Source: Minisyncoccota bacterium (GTDB lineage: Bacteria; Patescibacteriota; Minisyncoccia; Phycocordibacterales; GWA1-40-21). Taken from it: a stretch of DNA of 64,000 nucleotides. The number at the start of each line of letters is the position of its first letter. Position 1 is the first letter of the stretch. A model generated the notes under the pieces. The model did no database searches and was not told where the DNA came from. It saw only the letters and a list, made by a program, of their open reading frames with translations. The position numbers and the translations under genes are program-made. The stretch is taken from the NCBI GenBank assembly GCA_041663045.1, contig JBAZRH010000001.1, positions 340,403 through 404,402 on the forward strand, written 5' to 3'. Below are positions 4,303 to 60,224 of this stretch, in pieces.

Positions 4303-4989
4303 TTATTTATTGATGATAATATCGCAAAACTTTCTAGATAAGAAAACTAACCTTCTCTGAATATCGGTCCTACCAAGTCTTAAAACACACACGCCCTTAT
4401 AATAATCATAAGTCTTTTTCCCTTTTGTTCTATTATCAATACTAATCGAAGTAAAGTTTTCTAATGGTATTTTTAATTCTTTCGACCAATACTTTCTAAC
4501 ATGATCCACGTCTTGGTCAGCACGCAAATGAAGCTCACACCTAAAGCCCTTTCTATCGAAACCGAAGCACTTCTCAATAGCTGATATAAAGAAGTTCAGT
4601 ATTTGTGGATCAGAATTCCCTATACCGGTATTATTTGATTTTTTAAAACCTTCACCAAGATACAACATCGCTAAAGCTAGTTCTATAATCTTCTTATTAT
4701 TATAATTAATACTATTTAGTATATTAATAGCATCCAATTCCGCTTTTATTATTCTTTTCTGTTTTTCGGCATTATGCCACAATATAGCCTTCTTTCTAGC
4801 TTCGATTAAAGCAAGTCGTTTATTCTCCTCTAGCTTAATCTCCTGATTAGCAGTTAGTTTTATACCGCTAAACCAACCACTTAACGTAGAACGTGGAATA
4901 CTGTATTTCTTTTCTATGTGCCTAATAGAAAGACCTCTTTTTCTTAAAGAGATCGCATTATTCTTTAAATCGAACCATTTGGACTTCAT
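4303..4989 (-). CDS. putative free-standing LAGLIDADG-type homing endonuclease with N-terminal HTH
   Basis: 228 aa; N-terminal resolvase-like HTH (RKRGLSIRHIEKKYSIPRSTLSGW); LAMLYLGEG resembles the LAGLIDADG motif; sits between trxB and tRNA-Val. Confidence 0.5.
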   Translation of the reverse strand: MKSKWFDLKNNAISLRKRGLSIRHIEKKYSIPRSTLSGWFSGIKLTANQEIKLEENKRLALIEARKKAILWHNAEKQKRIIKAELDAINILNSINYNNKKIIELALAMLYLGEGFKKSNNTGIGNSDPQILNFFISAIEKCFGFDRKGFRCELHLRADQDVDHVRKYWSKELKIPLENFTSISIDNRTKGKKTYDYYKGVCVLRLGRTDIQRRLVFLSRKFCDIIINK

Positions 4990-5035
4990 GTATATATTAT
5001 ATACCCAATGGTCCGTATAATCAAATACATTATTG

Positions 5036-5108
5036 TGGGCGGTGAGGGATTCGAACCCACGACATCAAGAACGTCAATCCTGCGCTCTACCAACTGAGCT
5101 AACCGCCC
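5036..5108 (-). tRNA. tRNA-Val (anticodon GAC)
   Basis: cloverleaf folded by hand: acceptor GGGCGGT/ACCGCCC, D-arm TAGCTCAGTTGGTAGAGC, anticodon loop TTGACGT, T-loop TTCGAAT (one U-U mismatch in T-stem). Confidence 0.8.
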
Positions 5109-5154
5109 AAATTTTCTTTAGAGATATTAGCACAAAAAAGCCAAAAAACAAATT

Positions 5155-5583
5155 GCGGTGTGTATTATACAAAGTTCGAATGTATTTTGAAAGCAACCCT
5201 GATGCCGACTAATCGCACGCGCGGAGCGCGTGGTGGCTCTAAACTGCCTCGTACGCTCGTATCGTTCCGCCACCGCCTCGCAAAGCCTCGGCGGAAACCC
5301 CGAAAGAAAAACACTCCTTGCATTTCTGATTTGGCGGGGGTGAAATTTCTTTTGAAAAAGGAAAGGGTGTTTTTCTTTCGGGGTTCTGCCCTCCAAGTAT
5401 TCGGGCAGGTGGCGGAACAATGCGGACGAAGTTTTGGCAAAACTATTTTTTGGGGAGGAAAGGATTTGCCAAAACTTCGGCTGATTTGTTTTTGAATTCG
5501 GATGTCGCAAGCGGAGGAGGAGGGGTTTGGGGAGGAATTTTCCATTTGCTCCTCTTTTTGTTTTGGGGGAATTCGGGGCGGAC
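5155..5583. repeat. left copy of a 429-bp perfect inverted repeat (partner 9304..9732) bracketing the R-M cassette
   Basis: ORF 5160..5495(+) is identical in protein sequence to ORF 9392..9727(-). Position x pairs with 14887-x. Boundaries checked by nucleotide comparison. GC-richer than surroundings, with internal long imperfect hairpin 5264..5420. Confidence 0.9.
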
Positions 5584-5602
5584 TTCTACAAAAATCTTAT
5601 CA

Positions 5603-5974
5603 TCAACTATCGTTCGTGCCAACTTCTGCTTCACTAATGGTTTGGTAATTTCCACCGATAACTCTGTCCTTGCCCTGACTTGATAGTGCTTGATAAGATT
5701 TTTCTATGTCTTTACTACTAGATCGTAAAGTTCCGATTGTACTTTTGTATTCGCTAATTACATCTTTATAACTTTCACGAATTTGATTTGAAAAGAAAGA
5801 GATTATTGTATAAAGCAATCCTACAGAAATTGAAATTGTTCCTAAAATGCCACGCGGACTTGTAAAATTATTTGCTCCATTCAAGAGCCAGCAACCTGCA
5901 AGAAGCGTGATAAATAACACCAGTATAGATTGAAGTTCAATTTTTTTAATAAGTTCTTGCCACATATTATTCAA
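5603..5974 (-). CDS. hypothetical small membrane protein (island cargo)
   Basis: 123 aa; hydrophobic segment ILVLFITLLAGCWLL; last gene of the minus-strand cassette operon. Confidence 0.4.
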   Translation of the reverse strand: MNNMWQELIKKIELQSILVLFITLLAGCWLLNGANNFTSPRGILGTISISVGLLYTIISFFSNQIRESYKDVISEYKSTIGTLRSSSKDIEKSYQALSSQGKDRVIGGNYQTISEAEVGTNDS

Positions 5975-6620
5975 AGGTGCTATTTATCACGCTCAAAAAT
6001 CCATTATCATCCGCTAAGTATTGTTTGAAACTTTTAAGTGTTGCTGATATATCGCCAATTTCAATTTCTCCAGCTTGAAATACATCAACATCAAAAAGAA
6101 TGCCTAGGGTTTTTGCCTCGTCGTTTTTTACAACAGGTTGTATTACTAAATTTGCGCTAAAATCTTTTCCAGTTTTTACTTCAAGACGAATCACAGACGG
6201 CTTGGTTTCCTTAATAACAGTAAATTTCTTCAAATACTCATCTTGTTTTGCTTGGTCTGCAAATTCATATACAAAATAATTCCGCCAACCAATTCGGCTT
6301 ATTTTTTCAACTTCTAATATCTTTGAAATTGTCTCTGCCTCCTTTGAGAATAGAGTTGAGATCATATCCAACGAATCTGGTTCAGCAAATTTCGCCCACA
6401 CCGCTTGAGCGGTGATTTTTAATTGTTCAATTTTATCTTTCGGATCTTGAATAACTAACCCGTTGAGATTCATTGAAAACTGTGGGGCGGAATTCTTTTT
6501 GTGATAAGCATTCACGATTTCTCCCGCCTTATCAACATACTTAAAACCCTTAATCGTATTGACTTGAATAAACGATTCGGGGTTATTGAGCTTATTTAAT
6601 TTGGCGATTGTTTTGCTCAT
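5967..6620 (-). CDS. hypothetical protein (island cargo, unknown function)
   Basis: 217 aa; 8-nt overlap with downstream ORF suggests translational coupling; no motif recognised. Confidence 0.45.
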   Translation of the reverse strand: MSKTIAKLNKLNNPESFIQVNTIKGFKYVDKAGEIVNAYHKKNSAPQFSMNLNGLVIQDPKDKIEQLKITAQAVWAKFAEPDSLDMISTLFSKEAETISKILEVEKISRIGWRNYFVYEFADQAKQDEYLKKFTVIKETKPSVIRLEVKTGKDFSANLVIQPVVKNDEAKTLGILFDVDVFQAGEIEIGDISATLKSFKQYLADDNGFLSVINSTFE

Positions 6621-6628
6621 AATTATTT

Positions 6629-7426
6629 TTAGTCTATTTTTGTTTCAATTATCTTTTTGAACTTCTTTTCTAACTCTGGTCTTATTTCTTCTCCAACTTC
6701 TTCATAAATTTTGATTAAATCCTCAAAAGTACCGGCTCCACCAAAATAATCCCAAAAATCTTTTCCAATGAGAAAGTCGTTACCTTTGTCGAAAAATTTA
6801 ATACATGTCCATCGTTGGTATTCTTGTGGTGCGTAAGGATTATAATACATGCCTAAAAATATTTTCACCCTTTTACCCTCTCTTGCTTTCATAGCGTAAA
6901 TCTCTAAAAGATCTCTCTTTGCAGCCCTCATTTCATTTTTATTTGGCTTAGGTCCTTTTATCTCGAAATATATTTCTTCGCCGTTATCTCGTTCAAGATA
7001 AAGATCAACAGTTTGAATTCTATCAACTAAATCCTTACTGTCCTGACTTGCATTATAGATTTCTTCTGACTCTTTTTTATGACTTGGCTCTCTCTTTACA
7101 CTATCAAGATCACTGAGAATATTCTCAAATGTTCGCTGTGCTTCGTGTGTAATTTTTCCTTGCAATTTCTCTGTTCCTTGTAGTTTTTTTGCTACCTTAA
7201 AATTTTCTTTGGCAATGATTTTCGCAACTGATTCATGCCAACTACCAAGTGCGGTTTCGCAACCATGTATAAATCCTTTTGCTAAGTAACCCTTCTTTGT
7301 GAAAAGGGCATATTGAAAAGGTTTTGCTGAATCCTCATCGCTTAAATCATACTCCGCAATCTTCCTTAAGATTTTCTCTTTGAGAAATTGGTAAACCTCA
7401 ATTTTTGATTTTTCAGATAAAGCCAT
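6629..7426 (-). CDS. putative Type II restriction endonuclease (candidate PD-(D/E)xK nuclease)
   Basis: 265 aa, immediately downstream of the methyltransferase in the same orientation; VDLYLERDNGEEIYFEIKGPK resembles a D...E.K nuclease core. Assignment is by position and weak motif only. Confidence 0.4.
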   Translation of the reverse strand: MALSEKSKIEVYQFLKEKILRKIAEYDLSDEDSAKPFQYALFTKKGYLAKGFIHGCETALGSWHESVAKIIAKENFKVAKKLQGTEKLQGKITHEAQRTFENILSDLDSVKREPSHKKESEEIYNASQDSKDLVDRIQTVDLYLERDNGEEIYFEIKGPKPNKNEMRAAKRDLLEIYAMKAREGKRVKIFLGMYYNPYAPQEYQRWTCIKFFDKGNDFLIGKDFWDYFGGAGTFEDLIKIYEEVGEEIRPELEKKFKKIIETKID

Positions 7427-7430
7427 ATGA

Positions 7431-9005
7431 TTATTTTACTTTAAAATGAAATATAATTTCTGAATACGGATTTCGATCGCGTTCCGTTCTGTTCAATACT
7501 GGTCGCTTAAACTGATTGACAATCTTCATTCCCGCCTTTTCCGCAATTTCTGGGTAGAGATTATATTTATCATTTGCCACAAGAAAAATGTCAAAATCTG
7601 TTTTGAGGTATTGCTTACAGTTATTTAACACATCTGCAATCCCTTGTGCATATGACCGGCGAGCCTCCATTCCTTGCCCTTTGTATAGCGGCCCAATTTC
7701 TAAATCATCCTTGCGCTTAAATCCAAGAAGGTCATATGCGTAAGCGTGTTGCTCGTGATAATCAATCTGCCCTACATAAGGAGGTGAGCAAAAAATACCA
7801 GCTATTTTTTGTTTTTTTAGAATTTTAGAAAATTCTGGATTTTGCTTCTCTATTTTCTCAAAAATATCTATCGCCCTTGAATCACCAGCTAAAACGGAAT
7901 GGTGAACTGGTTTTCGTAATCTACTAAATTCTCTGATTCTGTTTAATGTATCAAGAGCATAGCGATTGAGCATACTCGTTATCGAGAAAAGAGGTTTGCA
8001 GATTTTTTTGTGTTTATAACAGTAATAAGTCGTAAGTTGAGGTTCTTTGAGGGTTGCGAGGTCGCTGTGCGTAGTCGCACGACACGATCTGATTGTCCTG
8101 CTCAAAATCAGAGCTAACATTTTGCGGGTTTTGACGTCTTTTTCTTGTTTGATTGTTTGGAAAACATGATCTATCTCTCGACGAACATTATCCATAAACC
8201 AAACATCAAGGAAAGAATCGGATTTGTCCTGTTTTAACTTAATTGAATACTTTTTTAGTAGTTTCTGATATACAGGCAAAAACTCCTTCTCTTTTTCTGT
8301 GGCAAATTTATTTTCATCAAAACTTCCTTGATTGATTTTGTATTTAAAGTCAGAACCCGGAAAATGTACCAAGTTAAATTTGGCAAGTTCGGCCAAAAGT
8401 TCGTTTTCAAAATCTTGAATTTTATTGTCATGATCAAAAGAATCAAGTGAAGCAATTAGTTTTTTAATCGCTTTTTGTAAGTACTCATCGTTATAGTGTG
8501 TTGCCTTACAACTTGAAATCATGCAGTTAAATTCAGAAACATCTATACCAACGGAATGAATACCCATTTCAAGCGATTGAATAATTGTTGTCCCAGAACC
8601 CAAGAATGGATCAAGAATAACATCACCTGCTTTGAAATAGGCTTCTTTCTTAAAATCATCAGTATGATTATCTATAAAATATTCAACAAGTTGTGGAATG
8701 TATTTACCTTTATATGGGTGGAGTCGGTGTACATGTTTTGTGGTATCCACCTCTCTTAAATTATCAAAAGAAAGCGTCCAATTTAAATCATCGCCTAGAT
8801 TTTTTTTCCAACTTACTTCGCGCGTGCCATTATAAGAATTATAATATTTTTTTAAATCATTCAAATCAACCATGGTCGAGCCGTTCTCTCCATGTTTTTT
8901 TACTTTTCCATACTGGACAAGGTAAGAAATGTTCGTAGGTAAAACATCTTTCTTGAGATGTTCTGATGCCCATTTTGATGCTTCGGGGATAGTTACTAAT
9001 GACAT
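7431..9005 (-). CDS. DNA amino-methyltransferase (alpha-class; motif I DPFLGSGTT, motif IV SPPY suggests N4-cytosine or N6-adenine)
   Basis: 524 aa; FxGxG-type AdoMet motif near residue 135 and catalytic SPPY near residue 405 with a long target-recognition region between. Confidence 0.8.
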   Translation of the reverse strand: MSLVTIPEASKWASEHLKKDVLPTNISYLVQYGKVKKHGENGSTMVDLNDLKKYYNSYNGTREVSWKKNLGDDLNWTLSFDNLREVDTTKHVHRLHPYKGKYIPQLVEYFIDNHTDDFKKEAYFKAGDVILDPFLGSGTTIIQSLEMGIHSVGIDVSEFNCMISSCKATHYNDEYLQKAIKKLIASLDSFDHDNKIQDFENELLAELAKFNLVHFPGSDFKYKINQGSFDENKFATEKEKEFLPVYQKLLKKYSIKLKQDKSDSFLDVWFMDNVRREIDHVFQTIKQEKDVKTRKMLALILSRTIRSCRATTHSDLATLKEPQLTTYYCYKHKKICKPLFSITSMLNRYALDTLNRIREFSRLRKPVHHSVLAGDSRAIDIFEKIEKQNPEFSKILKKQKIAGIFCSPPYVGQIDYHEQHAYAYDLLGFKRKDDLEIGPLYKGQGMEARRSYAQGIADVLNNCKQYLKTDFDIFLVANDKYNLYPEIAEKAGMKIVNQFKRPVLNRTERDRNPYSEIIFHFKVK

Positions 9006-9009
9006 AGTT

Positions 9010-9222
9010 TTATTTTATCAGATTATCAATGCTTATTCCTAGCCCCTCGGCGATTTTGGTTACAGTTTGGATTGACGGTTTTGTTATAACATTCGATTCA
9101 ATCTTGGTCAGTGTTGTGTAGGGAATATCGCACTTTCTCGCAAGAGCGTCCTGTGTCAATCCTTGCTTTGCGCGAAAGACTTTTATTTTATCCCCAATTT
9201 CTTTATTTTGTTTGCTTTCCAT
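9010..9222 (-). CDS. HTH XRE-family controller (C) protein of the R-M cassette
   Basis: 70 aa Cro/C1-type HTH (GLTQDALARKCDIPYTTLTKIE), first gene of the cassette, 4 nt upstream of the MTase. Confidence 0.7.
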   Translation of the reverse strand: MESKQNKEIGDKIKVFRAKQGLTQDALARKCDIPYTTLTKIESNVITKPSIQTVTKIAEGLGISIDNLIK

Positions 9223-9303
9223 AGTATGATAGTATAAGTATGAGCGTTGAAACTAACCCTCACAACTATACTAACATGAATTTAATCTTTTCTCAATTTT
9301 TTT

Positions 9304-9732
9304 GTCCGCCCCGAATTCCCCCAAAACAAAAAGAGGAGCAAATGGAAAATTCCTCCCCAAACCCCTCCTCCTCCGCTTGCGACATCCGAATTCAAAAACA
9401 AATCAGCCGAAGTTTTGGCAAATCCTTTCCTCCCCAAAAAATAGTTTTGCCAAAACTTCGTCCGCATTGTTCCGCCACCTGCCCGAATACTTGGAGGGCA
9501 GAACCCCGAAAGAAAAACACCCTTTCCTTTTTCAAAAGAAATTTCACCCCCGCCAAATCAGAAATGCAAGGAGTGTTTTTCTTTCGGGGTTTCCGCCGAG
9601 GCTTTGCGAGGCGGTGGCGGAACGATACGAGCGTACGAGGCAGTTTAGAGCCACCACGCGCTCCGCGCGTGCGATTAGTCGGCATCAGGGTTGCTTTCAA
9701 AATACATTCGAACTTTGTATAATACACACCGC
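9304..9732. repeat. right copy of the 429-bp inverted repeat (partner 5155..5583)
   Basis: reverse complement identical to 5155..5583; ORFs inside (9240..9877, 9282..9467, 9392..9727) mirror those in the left copy and are judged non-coding. Confidence 0.9.
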
Positions 9733-9848
9733 CAAAAATCGAAATCAGTTTTTGAAGCCAAAATGGGGTCGCGCCGAAGGCGCGACACTAATGCATTCCC
9801 CCCGCCGAATTCAGAATCCAAAAGGGTTTTCCACGCTCCGCGTGGCTC
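9729..9848. repeat. left copy of a 120-bp inverted repeat (partner 11253..11372) bracketing the serine recombinase gene
   Basis: 9729+11372=21101 symmetry verified base by base; this copy is an inverted duplicate of the tRNA-Ser 3' terminal CCGCC plus its 115-nt trailer. Confidence 0.9.
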
Positions 9849-9869
9849 CTCGTTTGCCAATACAAAATT

Positions 9870-11432
9870 ATGATTGATCACACCAGAAAATTTTTTATAT
9901 ACACTCGTAAATCTACCGATACTGAGGATCGGCAAGTTAGAAGCATTTCGGATCAACTGGCCGAGCTTAAAGAGTTAGCGGTTAAAGAACAAATCGAGGT
10001 TGTTGATATTTTTGTGGAAAAACAAACCGCTAAAGCCCCGGGTCGGCCAGTATTTAATGAAATGCTTCTCCGTATCGAAGCAAATGAGGCAAATGGAATT
10101 TTAGCGTGGCACCCCGACAGATTGGCGAGAAATAGTGTTGATGGTGGAAAAATTATCTATTTGCTCGATACGGGAAAAATTGCCGAGCTAAAATTTCCAA
10201 CTTTCTGGTGTGATACAACACCGCAAGGAAAGTTTATGCTCTCAATCGCTTTTTCTCAATCCAAGTATTACGTGGATAACTTGTCGGAGAATATCAAGCG
10301 CGGACACAGAAACAAAGTGAAGGAAGGAATATGGCCTCAAATGTCCCCGATAGGTTATGTCAATGTGAAAGGTGGTGGAATTATCCCTCACGCAGATTTA
10401 GCACCACTTGTTAAAAAGACATTTGAGGCATATTCAACTGGAAACTTCACTTTGCGGGAAGTCCGCGACAAGTTTAATGGGCTTGGATTGAAAAGAAAAA
10501 GCGGTAGAGAGCTTGCGGTGTCGAATTATCAAAAACTTCTCAAAAATCCTATTTACACCGGACTAATGAGATATAACGGAGAGATTTTTGAGGGAAAGCA
10601 CGAACCGATTATTTCAAAGAAACTTTTTGATCAATGTCAAGAAGTGATGATGAGAAAATCTAAACCTCACTCGAAAGGGCTAAAGCCATTTTTGTACAGA
10701 GGATTTTTCCGTTGCGGAGAATGTGGCTGTTTTATAACTACCGAGCAACAAAAAGGTCATCGCTATCTCCGCTGTACCAAACGGAAAAATCCTTGTACTC
10801 AAAAATATGTTCGTGAGGAGCTCATCACTTCTCAAATTCAAAATGAAATCAAAAAAGTTTCTTTGCCTCTCGATTGGACGGAGTGGATGATTGCCGAAAA
10901 TGCAAAAGATCGGCAATCAGAAGTCCAATCGAGTTCGCTTTTTGTGGATTCTGCAAAAGCCGATATTTCTCTTTTAGATTCCAAGATTGAGAAGCTGATG
11001 ACGGCGTATTTAGAGAACGCACTTTCAATTGAAGAATATCGCGACGCAAAAAGTGCGCTGGTTGCCTCAAAACAGCTTCTCAAAGAGAAATTATCGGCTT
11101 TTGAGCAAAAAGCGAATAATCGGTTCGAACTTACCGAAAAGTTTTTGAAATACAATATGGAATTGGCAAACGAGGGAACAAATGAAGAAAAACTTCATTT
11201 GTTCAAAAAAGTCGGTTCGAACTTTTTAATTAAGGATCGAACCGTACTTTTTGAGCCACGCGGAGCGTGGAAAACCCTTTTGGATTCTGAATTCGGCGGG
11301 GGGAATGCATTAGTGTCGCGCCTTCGGCGCGACCCCATTTTGGCTTCAAAAACTGATTTCGATTTTTGGCGGAAGTGGGAGGATTCGAACCTCCGATGCC
11401 CTTTCGAGCATGCCGCTTTTCGAGAGCGGTGA
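9870..11432 (+). CDS. large serine recombinase (resolvase/invertase N-terminal domain + recombinase domain + zinc ribbon)
   Basis: 520 aa; N-terminal YTRKSTDTEDRQ catalytic-serine region, CGECGC...C zinc-ribbon-like segment, C-terminal coiled coil. Its last ~57 codons are encoded by the inverted repeat and by the antisense of tRNA-Ser. Confidence 0.85.
   Translation: MIDHTRKFFIYTRKSTDTEDRQVRSISDQLAELKELAVKEQIEVVDIFVEKQTAKAPGRPVFNEMLLRIEANEANGILAWHPDRLARNSVDGGKIIYLLDTGKIAELKFPTFWCDTTPQGKFMLSIAFSQSKYYVDNLSENIKRGHRNKVKEGIWPQMSPIGYVNVKGGGIIPHADLAPLVKKTFEAYSTGNFTLREVRDKFNGLGLKRKSGRELAVSNYQKLLKNPIYTGLMRYNGEIFEGKHEPIISKKLFDQCQEVMMRKSKPHSKGLKPFLYRGFFRCGECGCFITTEQQKGHRYLRCTKRKNPCTQKYVREELITSQIQNEIKKVSLPLDWTEWMIAENAKDRQSEVQSSSLFVDSAKADISLLDSKIEKLMTAYLENALSIEEYRDAKSALVASKQLLKEKLSAFEQKANNRFELTEKFLKYNMELANEGTNEEKLHLFKKVGSNFLIKDRTVLFEPRGAWKTLLDSEFGGGNALVSRLRRDPILASKTDFDFWRKWEDSNLRCPFEHAAFRER
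11253..11372. repeat. right copy of the 120-bp inverted repeat; doubles as the tRNA-Ser 3' trailer
   Basis: see 9729..9848; contains a GGGGTCGCG block shared with other tRNA-trailer modules. Confidence 0.9.
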
Positions 11433-11456
11433 TTTCAACCACTCACCCACACTTCC
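11367..11456 (-). tRNA. tRNA-Ser (anticodon CGA), CCA encoded
   Basis: acceptor GGAAGTG/CACTTCC, 3-bp D-stem, anticodon stem CCGCT/AGCGG with loop CTCGAAA, long variable arm, T-arm GGAGGTTCGAATCCTCC, discriminator G + CCA. Confidence 0.85.
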
Positions 11457-11521
11457 ATGTTTGTAAAGATAACATCTTTTTGCCTTTTTTTCAAAAAAAG
11501 GTTATATTGTTTGAGCCGTTT

Positions 11522-11596
11522 GGCCCTATCGTCTAATGGTTAGGACACGGCCTTTTCAAGGCTGTAATCAGGGTTCGATTCCCTGTAGGGTCACCA
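11522..11596 (+). tRNA. tRNA-Glu (anticodon TTC), CCA encoded
   Basis: acceptor GGCCCTA/TAGGGTC, D-arm TCGTCTAATGGTTAGGAC, anticodon loop TTTTCAA, T-loop TTCGATT. Confidence 0.85.
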
Positions 11597-11745
11597 AAAA
11601 TTTACACAGTAATATTTTTGTGATTTTAAAATGTAAAAGTCTTTACATTTTAAAAGAATCGAAAGACGGACTGAGTAAAGACGAAGGAGTCGGGGTCGAG
11701 AGATTTTTCAGCAGAAAAATACTCGTGACCGATTCACCTTAATAA
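11597..11745 (+). repeat. tRNA-trailer module downstream of tRNA-Glu (family member, lacks a clean terminal direct repeat)
   Basis: contains GGAGTCGGGGTCGAGAG and CGTGACCGATTCACC blocks matching GAGGCGGGGTCGCGA and TTGTGACCGATTCA in the tRNA-Gly and tRNA-Lys modules; AT-rich hairpin right after the tRNA. Confidence 0.55.
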
Positions 11746-11751
11746 AATCAA

Positions 11752-11784
11752 ATGAAAATCTTAGGCATTGAAACCAGTTGCGAC
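11752..11784 (+). other. orphan duplicate of the first 11 codons of tsaD (MKILGIETSCD) with 7 synonymous differences
   Basis: ATGAAAATCTTAGGCATTGAAACCAGTTGCGAC versus the real start ATGAAGATTCTAGGAATCGAGACCAGTTGCGAT at 11863. It is followed by a short out-of-context reading frame. Confidence 0.8.
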
Positions 11785-11862
11785 CCCGTAAAAATTTATC
11801 AGAATAAACTAACGGGGCGAGAAGTGGTATTTTTGTATTTTATCTGCTAAATTATACTTAAC

Positions 11863-13059
11863 ATGAAGATTCTAGGAATCGAGACCAGTTGCGATGAAAC
11901 AGCAGTTTGCTTAATTGAAACCGACAAAGAAGTCGGCAATATTAAAATACTTGGTAATCAGCTATATTCTCAAATCGCTTTACATGCACAATATGGCGGA
12001 GTTTTCCCTATGATGGCAAAAAGAGAACATGCAAAAAATCTTATTCCACTGTTTGAAAGATGTTTGGAAGAAGCGAGCTGTATAAAAGAAGTAAGATCTC
12101 CTATCCTAGAATCAGCAAGAGAAAAACTCAAAGAACTCCTTGTAAAAGAAATGGATATTTTTGATCAGATTATTGAGCTTGCGGAGAAAATCGAAAAGCC
12201 AAATATAGATGCGATTGCCGTGACAAACGGCCCGGGGCTTGAGCCGGCACTTTGGGTCGGTGTGAATTTTGCAAAAGCACTTGAAATTATTTGGAATATT
12301 CCTATCATCCCCACAAATCATATGGAGGGACATATCCTTGTCGCAGCTATTGATAAAATAAAAACCGAGGAGTCACCTTCCAAGGCTAAGGAAACACCTC
12401 AATTTTTATTAAAAGAGATTAAATTCCCCGCTATCGCTCTTCTTATAAGTGGTGGGCATACCCAGCTTGTCCTCGCAAAAGACAATCTTCAATATGAAAT
12501 CGTCGGCAATACGAGAGACGACGCTGTGGGCGAAGCTTTTGATAAAGTTGCAAGGATTCTCGGTCTTCCATACCCGGGTGGACCACAGATTTCTAAACTC
12601 GCCGAAAAAGAAAGGGCAGAAAATCCAGATAAAAAACCGCCATATCCCCTACCTCGCCCCATGATCCATTCGGGTGATTTGGATTTTTCATTTTCCGGTT
12701 TGAAAACCGCGGTGCTTTATACTGTTAAAAAAATTCCCGAGATGACCGAAGAGATCAAACAAGAAATCGCCTGTGAATTTGAAAATGCCGTCTTGGAAGT
12801 GTTGACTAAGAAAACATTTGAAGCCGTCAGAAAATATAGTGCGAAAACAATAATAATTGGTGGAGGTGTCAGCGCAAATAAAAAGATAAGAAACGACTTT
12901 ACCGAAAAATCCAAAGCAGAAGATGTTGAACTGATGATTCCTGAAGTAAATGCTTCCACAGATAATGCCTTTATGATAGCCCTTGCCGGAGCGATAAATT
13001 TAGAAGCCGGTAAGAAAACCGCTACGGATTTCAGGGCAAGTGGGAATCTATCGCTTTAA
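11863..13059 (+). CDS. tsaD: tRNA N6-adenosine threonylcarbamoyltransferase TsaD (Kae1/TsaD family)
   Basis: 398 aa; MKILGIETSCDET N-terminus, HMEGH metal-binding motif, Gly-rich ASKHA fold segments; carries an insertion relative to typical 340-aa TsaD. Confidence 0.85.
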   Translation: MKILGIETSCDETAVCLIETDKEVGNIKILGNQLYSQIALHAQYGGVFPMMAKREHAKNLIPLFERCLEEASCIKEVRSPILESAREKLKELLVKEMDIFDQIIELAEKIEKPNIDAIAVTNGPGLEPALWVGVNFAKALEIIWNIPIIPTNHMEGHILVAAIDKIKTEESPSKAKETPQFLLKEIKFPAIALLISGGHTQLVLAKDNLQYEIVGNTRDDAVGEAFDKVARILGLPYPGGPQISKLAEKERAENPDKKPPYPLPRPMIHSGDLDFSFSGLKTAVLYTVKKIPEMTEEIKQEIACEFENAVLEVLTKKTFEAVRKYSAKTIIIGGGVSANKKIRNDFTEKSKAEDVELMIPEVNASTDNAFMIALAGAINLEAGKKTATDFRASGNLSL

Positions 13060-59967: not shown

Positions 59968-59979
59968 CTTATATTTACC

Positions 59980-60151
59980 GGAGCCGTTGACCAGGATCGC
60001 TCGCAACTCAAAATCTTTCCGTCGAAAAATTTTTGTCTGGGCACCGGCTCATAAAATTTTCTGCAGAAAATTTTTGACTCCGCCGTTCGCTCCTGGACGC
60101 AAGCAAAACCCTTTGCTTGCTTAAACGACTCATCCTCACTTCGTTCATCTG
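59980..60151 (-). repeat. tRNA-trailer module attached to tRNA-Thr(GGT). Ends with a 19-nt direct repeat (GAGCCGTTGACCAGGATCG, 59980..59998) of the tRNA 3' end (60151..60169)
   Basis: contains inverted T-arm copy CCGTTCGCTCCTGG, conserved hairpin GACGCAAGCAAA-ACCC-TTTGCTTGC, block GAGCCGGTGCCCAGAC and palindrome AAAATTTTCTGCAGAAAATTTT. Confidence 0.8.
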
Positions 60152-60224
60152 AGCCGTTGACCAGGATCGAACTGGTGACCTCGTCATTACCAATGACGTG
60201 CTCTACCAACTGAGCTACAACGGC
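60152..60224 (-). tRNA. tRNA-Thr (anticodon GGT)
   Basis: acceptor GCCGTTG/CAACGGC, anticodon stem CGTCA/TGACG with loop TTGGTAA, T-loop TTCGATC. Confidence 0.85.

Follow-up and report, generated by a model that had tools for sequence, protein, structure and literature searches.

The DNA considered here is a 64,000-nucleotide stretch (the window) of contig JBAZRH010000001.1 from a Minisyncoccota bacterium (assembly GCA_041663045.1, positions 340,403 to 404,402). It carries tsaD, whose product makes the tRNA modification N6-threonylcarbamoyladenosine (t6A), and a second copy of the first 11 codons of that gene a short distance upstream. We call the upstream copy the orphan and the one that opens the gene the working copy. 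Between them lie a stem-loop and an AT-rich, promoter-like stretch. The features of this arrangement, in nucleotides (nt) of the window, are as follows.

11752 to 11784, + strand: orphan copy of tsaD codons 1–11 (MKILGIETSCD), ATGAAAATCTTAGGCATTGAAACCAGTTGCGAC
11863 to 11895, + strand: working copy of codons 1–11 (MKILGIETSCD), ATGAAGATTCTAGGAATCGAGACCAGTTGCGAT
11863 to 13059, + strand: open reading frame (ORF) of tsaD, 398 amino acids (aa); an identical database protein carries PF00814 and the NCBI name TsaD
11752 to 11850, + strand: mechanical 32-codon ORF opened by the orphan, which runs across the hairpin to a stop codon 12 nt short of the real ATG
11744 to 11751, + strand: last bases 5' of the orphan ATG, placed by alignment
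11781 to 11821, + strand: conserved stem-loop with its 3' flank, CG-A-CCCCGT...ACGGGG-CG-AG, found by folding; its first four bases belong to orphan codons 10–11
11822 to 11862, + strand: AT-rich promoter-like stretch of 41 nt with two extended -10-like boxes
11825 to 11833, + strand: extended -10-like box TGGTATTTT, directly after the hairpin
11845 to 11853, + strand: extended -10-like box TGCTAAATT, ending 9 nt before the ATG

The two copies are 33-nt repeats whose starts are 111 nt apart; the 78 nt that separate them contain no gene. They share 26 of 33 bases and all 11 amino acids, and their similarity begins exactly at the ATG and ends at codon 11. An earlier note on this DNA had recognized that the orphan encodes the exact TsaD N-terminus, which both translations confirm; it had also placed all seven base differences at third codon positions. 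All seven of the 33 are indeed synonymous, but only six are third-position changes, the other being a first-position change in a Leu codon (TTA/CTA). When seven random substitutions were simulated, the peptide was left unchanged in 0 of 20,000 trials, and a six-frame search of the 64-kb window found MKILGIETSCD at these two sites only. Both copies are present and 100% identical to the window in L001 (SRR18595301), an independent assembly from another sample, so the duplication is not an assembly artefact. The duplicated start is genuine and far beyond chance. Upstream of the orphan, alignment revealed about 20 nt (11733–11751, ATTCACCTTAATAAAATCAA) without a homologue in relatives, and a scan of the bases just 5' of the orphan ATG detected no TGnTAnnnT promoter motif.

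We examined the tsaD loci of approximately 85 related Patescibacteria, with flanks of up to 7 kb; individual loci are given L numbers. The same module is present in seven of them (L034, L061, L063, L065, L080, L083 and L327), which with the window makes eight loci, in hosts whose TsaD proteins are 55–70% identical. The order is always orphan, stem-loop beginning in codon 11/12, AT-rich stretch and real ATG, with a start-to-start spacing of 103–125 nt. The orphan breaks off identically in all eight loci, after codon 11/12 (TGYGAY or TGYGAYGA), and the distance from the CGAG that follows the stem to the real ATG is 38–41 nt in every case. The module occurs in only about 9% of lineages; carriers are dispersed on the TsaD tree, and it is absent from the sampled loci most closely related to each of them. 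Additional relatives at approximately 72% identity (P0004–P0006) had no module, and among the N-terminally extended TsaD proteins followed as a lead to more modules only P0173 was informative. The earlier note had reasoned that the same duplicated start at the same spacing in relatives would speak for a local duplication. Such relatives exist among the distant hosts but not among the closest, a pattern that indicates a recurrent module rather than either a local duplication or a one-off integration. The window structure is thus a recurrent, cargo-free, hairpin-bearing duplication of the tsaD start.

The orphan part of the module is less constant than its junction. Its ATG and open frame are kept in seven of the eight loci; in L061 the ATG and five codons have been lost and the hairpin is intact, which shows that orphans decay and are not universally maintained. 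Where the frame is open, its end varies from codon 18 in L034 through codon 25 in L063 and about 30 in L327 to 35 in L080, as read from the sequences, and in both L080 and L083 the stop lies 2 nt before the real ATG.

The base of the stem is invariant in the module loci (YG-A-CCCC … GGGG-CG-AG). The motif GACCCC...ACGGGGCGAG is found in 8/8, with the CCCC-hairpin directly adjoining each orphan, and was absent, even with mismatches allowed, from the approximately 400 nt upstream of tsaD in the other loci. Within about 1 Mb of related loci the 9-mer CGGGGCGAG lies beside orphans only, apart from a lone match without a hairpin in L064; orphan and hairpin are therefore a coupled unit. The upper stem and loop differ wholly in sequence between lineages, and pairing is retained in all eight (z -1.4 to -3.0 relative to shuffled sequences). 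Folds of the whole unit are no more stable than shuffles (z approx. -1.3 to +0.1), leaving the hairpin alone to stand out. An Rfam search of 11300–12000 (E <= 10) returned only two tRNAs at gathering scores and nothing credible over 11597–11862. No intrinsic terminator was called in 11400–12000, where the T-run begins about 12 nt after the stem, and the folds contained no conserved alternative (antiterminator) pairing. The module hairpin looks like a terminator-type element with a displaced T-run, and GC-based stems of similar style also close genes within the window.

The same stem base (CCCC·GTAGT…ACTAC·GGGG) was seen in two other settings, downstream of tRNA-Phe in L063 and directly before tsaD in L330. 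The L063 hairpin (L063:6718–6750) is a second member of this stem family in that locus, approximately 40 nt downstream of the tRNA; it has no flanking duplication, which suggests that stems of this type serve these bacteria generally as terminator-like elements. In L330, an IMG/VR contig, a very stable 134-nt hairpin (L330:405–560, z -6.2) has the same stem base (CCCCGTAGT…ACTACGGGG) and separates the TATG… start of tsaD from a promoter-like sequence that itself ends in TATG. This contig is otherwise GC-rich and phage-like, and may be chimeric.

Direct repeats only 111 nt apart could have arisen by local tandem or slippage duplication of the start in this genome, followed by drift. We regard this as very improbable. 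An untranslated copy would drift mainly by non-synonymous changes, since a single change is synonymous in only 19% of cases, yet all seven differences are silent; moreover, 7/10 codons differ against about four expected from the rate between the window and L002, its closest relative, which makes the two copies at least as distant as alleles of different genera. Nor would local duplication account for unrelated sequences upstream of the two copies, an intervening hairpin that is homologous in eight loci, or an orphan that matches the tsaD start of L017 at 32/33 bases. Across six independent intact loci, orphan and real start are separated by 27 synonymous and 3 non-synonymous codon differences, and the latter all fall at residue 2 (K, I or R), which is variable in real TsaD proteins too. 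These counts support the view that orphans are fragments of genuine tsaD alleles, probably shaped by protein-level selection. With the L017 match, they bear out the earlier suggestion that the window orphan evolved under such selection in another genome.

Which of the two copies is foreign can be approached by comparing each with other loci. The window orphan matches L017 at 32/33 bases, the L034 orphan at 29/33 and its own gene at 26/33; the working copy matches the L017 start at 26/33. The promoter-like stretch is 33/40 identical to the native sequence upstream of tsaD in L017; the next best match is 20/40, and the 99th percentile of the background is 21. For the working codons the best matches are L002 and L047 (30/33 each), and the working copy shares ATT, CTA, ATC and GAT with its sister L002 against the orphan, although L002 alone (3 versus 4 differences in codons 1–7) does not settle which copy is native. 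TsaD identity between the window and L017 is only 69%, and where residues agree the codons differ in 44% of cases, so retention of ancestral codons is unlikely to explain the match. L034 repeats the pattern, its promoter stretch (27/40) and its orphan (30/33) both being most similar to L036. Promoter and codons are contiguous in L017 and L036; in the window and L034 they are permuted, in the order codons, hairpin, promoter, as expected from a single crossover between a resident gene and a hairpin–promoter–codons unit. The window orphan and promoter stretch thus resemble a normal tsaD start region whose parts have been copied in a different order, and the foreign part is probably the orphan rather than the working start. 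Integration at the 5' end of tsaD with supply of a replacement start, as first proposed for this site, fits the layout of displaced and working starts, but probably not the identity of the incoming piece.

The reading we favour, tentatively, is that the module is the footprint of recombinational insertion of a short foreign tsaD start region, and that it reflects repeated, cargo-free replacement of the gene start rather than the one-off scar of a neighbouring island. The incoming unit would be approximately 110 bp long, come from a related bacterium and consist of a GC-based stem-loop, a tsaD promoter stretch of about 40 nt and tsaD codons 1–11/12, its hallmark being the junction of codon 11/12 with the CCCC-hairpin. 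A single (Campbell-type) crossover with the resident gene inside the shared 33 bases, or an equivalent event, would yield resident upstream DNA, a truncated hybrid start (the orphan), hairpin, promoter stretch, and a complete hybrid start with the rest of tsaD. The position of the crossover would set which copy keeps the foreign codons. In the window, a crossover beside the ATG would make the orphan and promoter incoming (L017-type) and leave the working codons native; in L080 and L083, a crossover near codons 8–10 would leave the orphan and its promoter native. In the product, the hairpin would probably shield tsaD from upstream transcription, the promoter stretch would drive a leaderless or near-leaderless tsaD mRNA, and the orphan would be a relic giving at most a 32-aa peptide.

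The native parts of L080 and L083 are the orphan and its promoter. Two single-copy loci, L076 (4-fold divergence from L083 of 0.21) and L328, have a sole start with the same promoter and codons 1–6 as the orphan of L080/L083; being close relatives of the carriers, they represent empty sites. In this clade the promoter preceding the orphan agrees with the species tree (6, 13 and 11 differences in 75 nt). The 77-nt spacers of L080 and L083 have 3 differences, against 30% at 4-fold sites, and the adjoining orphan has 3 synonymous changes and no others, which is the background level. Since most spacer positions vary freely between clades, this near-identity probably reflects a discrete DNA segment that the two have shared recently, constraint being the weaker explanation.

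Single-copy loci indicate how tsaD is normally expressed in this group. TGnTAnnnT ends 6–13 nt (mostly 6–10) before the tsaD ATG in 32/73 of them and occurs in an equally long region farther upstream in 5 loci only, while a Shine–Dalgarno-like 4-mer precedes tsaD in 2/73. This combination points to an mRNA that is probably leaderless or near-leaderless. A tRNA ends 0–20 nt before the tsaD ATG in several related loci, and tsaD seems, from its sequence context, to be leaderless or else freed by tRNA processing. L080 and L083 have the canonical motif before the orphan and not before the real start.

These features bear on a different account, in which the module is a conserved cis-regulatory leader: a leaderless short ORF and a structured RNA would set the level of tsaD expression, either because the ORF is translated or through termination and re-initiation behind it, and the arrangement would be old and often lost. 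In one variant, the leader might sense the decoding of ANN codons, which need TsaD-made t6A. We consider a leader unlikely, though several observations fit it. The hairpin base and the 38–41-nt distance are kept across hosts with TsaD proteins as little as 55–70% identical, the upper stem co-varies, the L080 and L083 spacers differ at only 3/77 positions, seven of the eight orphans have an ATG and open frame, Shine–Dalgarno-like sequences are scarce in single-copy loci, and ANN codons make up 5–6 of the 11 in the orphan, as counted from the sequence. For L080 and L083, where the sole canonical motif lies before the orphan and the short ORF stops 2 nt from the real ATG, the leader or re-initiation model stays alive. 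However, the ORF ends anywhere from codon 18 to 35, sometimes within the hairpin loop; L061 has kept the hairpin without a start codon; the orphan Ser codon is AGY in some loci and TCN in others; and a leader gives no reason for the peptide to equal the TsaD N-terminus. The module is confined to approximately 9% of lineages and missing from the nearest relatives of each carrier, and because loops and promoter stretches vary between clades the L080/L083 spacer identity fits constraint poorly. Leader-peptide attenuators of the trp, his and thr operons likewise have a short upstream ORF followed by a stem-loop before the structural gene, to which the (mechanical) 32-codon ORF and hairpin correspond. 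Unlike these, the tsaD module has no U-tract right after the stem, no terminator call, no alternative pairing and no conserved ORF stop, it has a promoter-like element between hairpin and gene, and its leader would copy the gene's own N-terminus.

Several observations weigh against recombinational insertion. The unit encodes no enzyme, and the loci examined, with flanks of up to 7 kb, yielded neither an enzyme nor a complete parent element, a circle or a product of excision; a double-stranded circle of 110 bp would also be physically awkward. The match of the window orphan to L017, taken alone, has a probability of approximately 0.03 per comparison from the measured codon-difference rate and is only moderately significant. 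GAG at codon 7 of the working copy is found in 6/8 module loci and 12/74 single-copy loci, an excess that insertion leaves unexplained. Codons 8–11 are mostly identical within a genome (exact Ser codon in 6/8 loci and TGYGAY in 6/8, by hand count), which needs local identity or gene conversion beyond a simple crossover. L076, which reads ACA TCC where both copies of L080 and L083 read ACY AGT, does not have the appearance of a plain ancestor or of a simple deletion. No TGnTAnnnT motif precedes the real start in L080, L083 or L327, and in these loci the orphan transcription unit may be required for tsaD expression. Lastly, spacer subtypes weakly follow host phylogeny (L080 and L083 with L327) and promoter stretches resemble those of the host clade, a weak vertical signal that fits old inheritance with many losses too.

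Insertion that replaces the 5' end of its target gene has precedents. SXT/R391 elements do so at prfC. The closest parallel lies in the islands and prophages specific for dusA, which insert in the 5' end of that gene, provide it with a replacement and strand the original 5' end at the island boundary (Farrugia et al. 2015, PMC4482086). As in those islands, the target is the 5' end of a conserved tRNA-modification or translation gene, the orphan lies at the outer boundary, the replacement keeps the protein intact and the ends form imperfect direct repeats. In contrast, the tsaD module has only a hairpin of 34 nt and some 40 nt of promoter-like sequence between its copies, with no integrase or cargo; the foreign part in the window seems to be the orphan and promoter, not the working codons; and the module recurs in many lineages at constant size. 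The window shares the repeat logic of a dusA island but lacks its defining cargo and integrase between the repeats.

The dusA layout and the genes nearby nonetheless raise the option that the window holds the stump of an integrase island or prophage that had entered the 5' end of tsaD and was later deleted internally, or that the repeats are attachment (att) sites of an adjacent recombinase island. The following upstream features bear on it.

9870 to 11432 (strand not stated): large serine recombinase gene with Resolvase, Recombinase and Zn_ribbon_recom domains
11522 to 11596, + strand: tRNA-Glu(UUC), called by ARAGORN (Rfam tRNA, 63.7 bits)
11597 to 11743, + strand: element X, a conserved 'tRNA-Glu trailer' of 147 nt without an Rfam match, context outside the module

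In relatives the gene order is ybeY-ftsA-ftsZ-trxB … tsaD-valS-PrsW-HSP20, with a highly variable trxB-tsaD interval into which different genes have been inserted in different genomes. In the closest relative, L002 (TsaD 78% identical), this interval holds only tRNA-Glu(-), tRNA-Ser(+) and tRNA-Val(+), the last ending 2 nt before the tsaD ATG. Relative to L002:5533–5998, the tRNA block of the window (5035–11596) is inverted and enlarged by about 6 kb, and L017 and L061 have the window orientation. The additional 6 kb encode an endonuclease-like ORF, a TdeIII-type restriction enzyme and methylase, a helix–turn–helix (HTH) protein and the serine recombinase. L017 has the same recombinase in the same position (90% identity over the last 64 residues), and this, with the shared tRNA orientation, suggests that L017-type DNA lies on the left side of the window more generally.

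A recombinase and a restriction–modification island 0.3–6 kb upstream, a counterpart in L017 and an interval prone to insertion all favour the stump, as does the pair of orphaned and replacement starts. We nevertheless hold it to be quite improbable. The earlier note tied the duplication to the recombinase island, a connection that the comparison did not support: the repeat pair does not enclose the recombinase gene, with tRNA-Ser, tRNA-Glu and element X standing between that gene and the orphan, and the island has boundaries of its own, formed by perfect inverted repeats of 429 and 120 nt and by tRNA-Ser. The upstream ORFs listed for L061, L065 and L083 (several kb) include no recombinase, and L017 has the recombinase but not the module. 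Independent deletion to the same 70–92 nt in seven lineages is implausible, and to our knowledge large serine recombinases are not expected to create long direct repeats. The attachment-site-like tsaD 5' fragment beside an integrase that the note had suggested seeking was not found in IMG/VR, although with flanks reaching 7 kb a large element whose orphan lies farther off could escape.

Further searches likewise returned no mobile parent. A full-text search (tsaD, attB, integrase) returned no paper describing tsaD as an attachment site. The loose pattern GACCCC N12-42 CGGGGCGAG gave chance matches in GC-rich DNA of viral and metagenome contigs, 0/240 of them beside a tsaD-like peptide; the specific pattern with a tsaD start had no viral matches in IMG/VR, and the degenerate coding pattern for MKIL[GAS]IETSCD had one match in the viral collection, a real tsaD gene. 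Two other processes offer partial parallels to the insertion we favour. Cis-mobilizable elements (CIMEs) and tandem accretion at the att sites of streptococcal integrative and conjugative elements (ICEs) also place short, gene-poor DNA between att-like direct repeats derived from the target gene and can build three-copy arrays, comparable with that of L034 described below; they are kilobases long and come from ICEs with known integrases, unlike the tsaD module, which has no known parent element. Homology-facilitated illegitimate recombination during natural transformation combines a homology anchor on one side with an illegitimate join on the other, at random junctions. It could anchor a relative's DNA in a conserved gene and produce partial duplications, but the same junction is seen in eight loci, so a single origin with later spread would have to be added.

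Other candidates were considered and set aside. A miniature inverted-repeat transposable element (MITE) or insertion sequence could be read into the stem arms, but the 33-nt flanking repeat is diverged, the 64-kb window has a single copy, related loci totalling about 1 Mb show the motif at tsaD only, and the similar hairpin at L063:6718 has no flanking duplication. Inspection by eye disfavoured a K-turn or box C/D-like motif (UGAUGA...; its 3' side varies between GA, GU and GG), a tRNA-like or anticodon-arm mimic (the loops misfit), a diversity-generating retroelement (the differences are not adenine-specific), a CRISPR-like spacer and repeat (a conserved reading frame and a variable 'repeat' speak against it), gene-60-type translational bypass (the take-off codon is not followed by a stop, and the product would be identical anyway), a group I, group II or bulge-helix-bulge intron (the module is too small and a duplicated start needless) and an integron attC site (there is no RYYYAAC/GTTRRRY core).

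The region upstream of tsaD is an insertion hot spot, as indicated by restriction–modification islands, by a further gene fragment in L034 and by a repeat at the tRNA-Glu gene of L017. Restriction–modification islands and endonuclease-like ORFs lie upstream of tsaD in several loci. L034 (2231–3445) has a third tsaD 5' fragment of approximately 17 codons, with some non-synonymous changes and a canonical promoter motif of its own; it lies 1.1 kb upstream of the orphan, with a Maf gene and an unknown 142-aa gene between, and the stop codon of Maf overlaps the orphan ATG. In L017 (1310–1565) a direct repeat of approximately 80 nt, perfect by eye, comprises 47 nt of upstream sequence and the first 33 nt of tRNA-Glu and encloses a 95-nt insert. 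The resulting order of orphan 5' part, insert and complete gene is a module-like architecture at a tRNA gene. Nearby (L017:1740–1950) the hairpin motif CCUCGCAG…CUGACGAGG occurs twice.

Element X follows tRNA-Glu in L015, L020 and L004 too, the region being 85% (over 265 nt, tRNA included), 84% and 72% identical, respectively. Its 3' part (11651–11743) contains nested inverted repeats by eye and is found elsewhere in many related loci; in L009 and L020, X lies 53–60 nt before the tsaD ATG. An older, degenerate module within X was considered and rejected, the alignment not being significant (47/300 shuffles score as well).

Within the island, 429-nt inverted repeats (5155–5583 and 9304–9732) surround the restriction–modification genes and 120-nt inverted repeats (9729–9848 and 11253–11372) surround the recombinase gene; each pair is 100% identical, and their inner arms abut. 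The 120-nt repeat takes in the last 6 nt of tRNA-Ser and its trailer, and the recombinase ORF reads through it into tRNA-Ser antisense. The two pairs could be an invertible arrangement or an assembly fold-back. A 228-aa ORF at 4303–4989 (- strand) has no Pfam or PDB sequence match and looks, by eye, like an HTH domain joined to a LAGLIDADG-like endonuclease; homologues lie directly upstream of tsaD in L043 and L060, beside tsaD in L058 and L330, and near other tRNA clusters in L013–L015, L037 and L039. Far downstream, 59974–59999 duplicates in part (88%) the tRNA-Thr(GGU) 3' end region (60144–60169); it lies a few bases from tRNA-Thr(CGU) and looks like an att-type tRNA fragment.

The tsaD start duplication can be placed as a variant of the dusA-island kind, a 5'-end-replacing insertion without cargo or integrase. 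Taken further, it might be a non-autonomous start-swap element of approximately 110 bp that spreads among Patescibacteria through the 33 most conserved bases of tsaD without a gene of its own or, equally unexpected, a working leader ORF that couples tsaD expression to the gene's own N-terminal codons; either proposal is doubtful at present. For annotation, the orphan creates a false alternative start. If the module proves to be a leader instead, it would possibly be the first cis-regulator for the t6A pathway in these organisms, for which we know of no earlier cis-regulatory element. If a cargo-free unit does move through the first 33 bases of an essential gene, start replacement would not be limited to large integrase islands, and these would be among the smallest site-specific insertions known. 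The module would then also mark recombination among distant lineages of the Patescibacteria, a group in which gene flow is difficult to follow.

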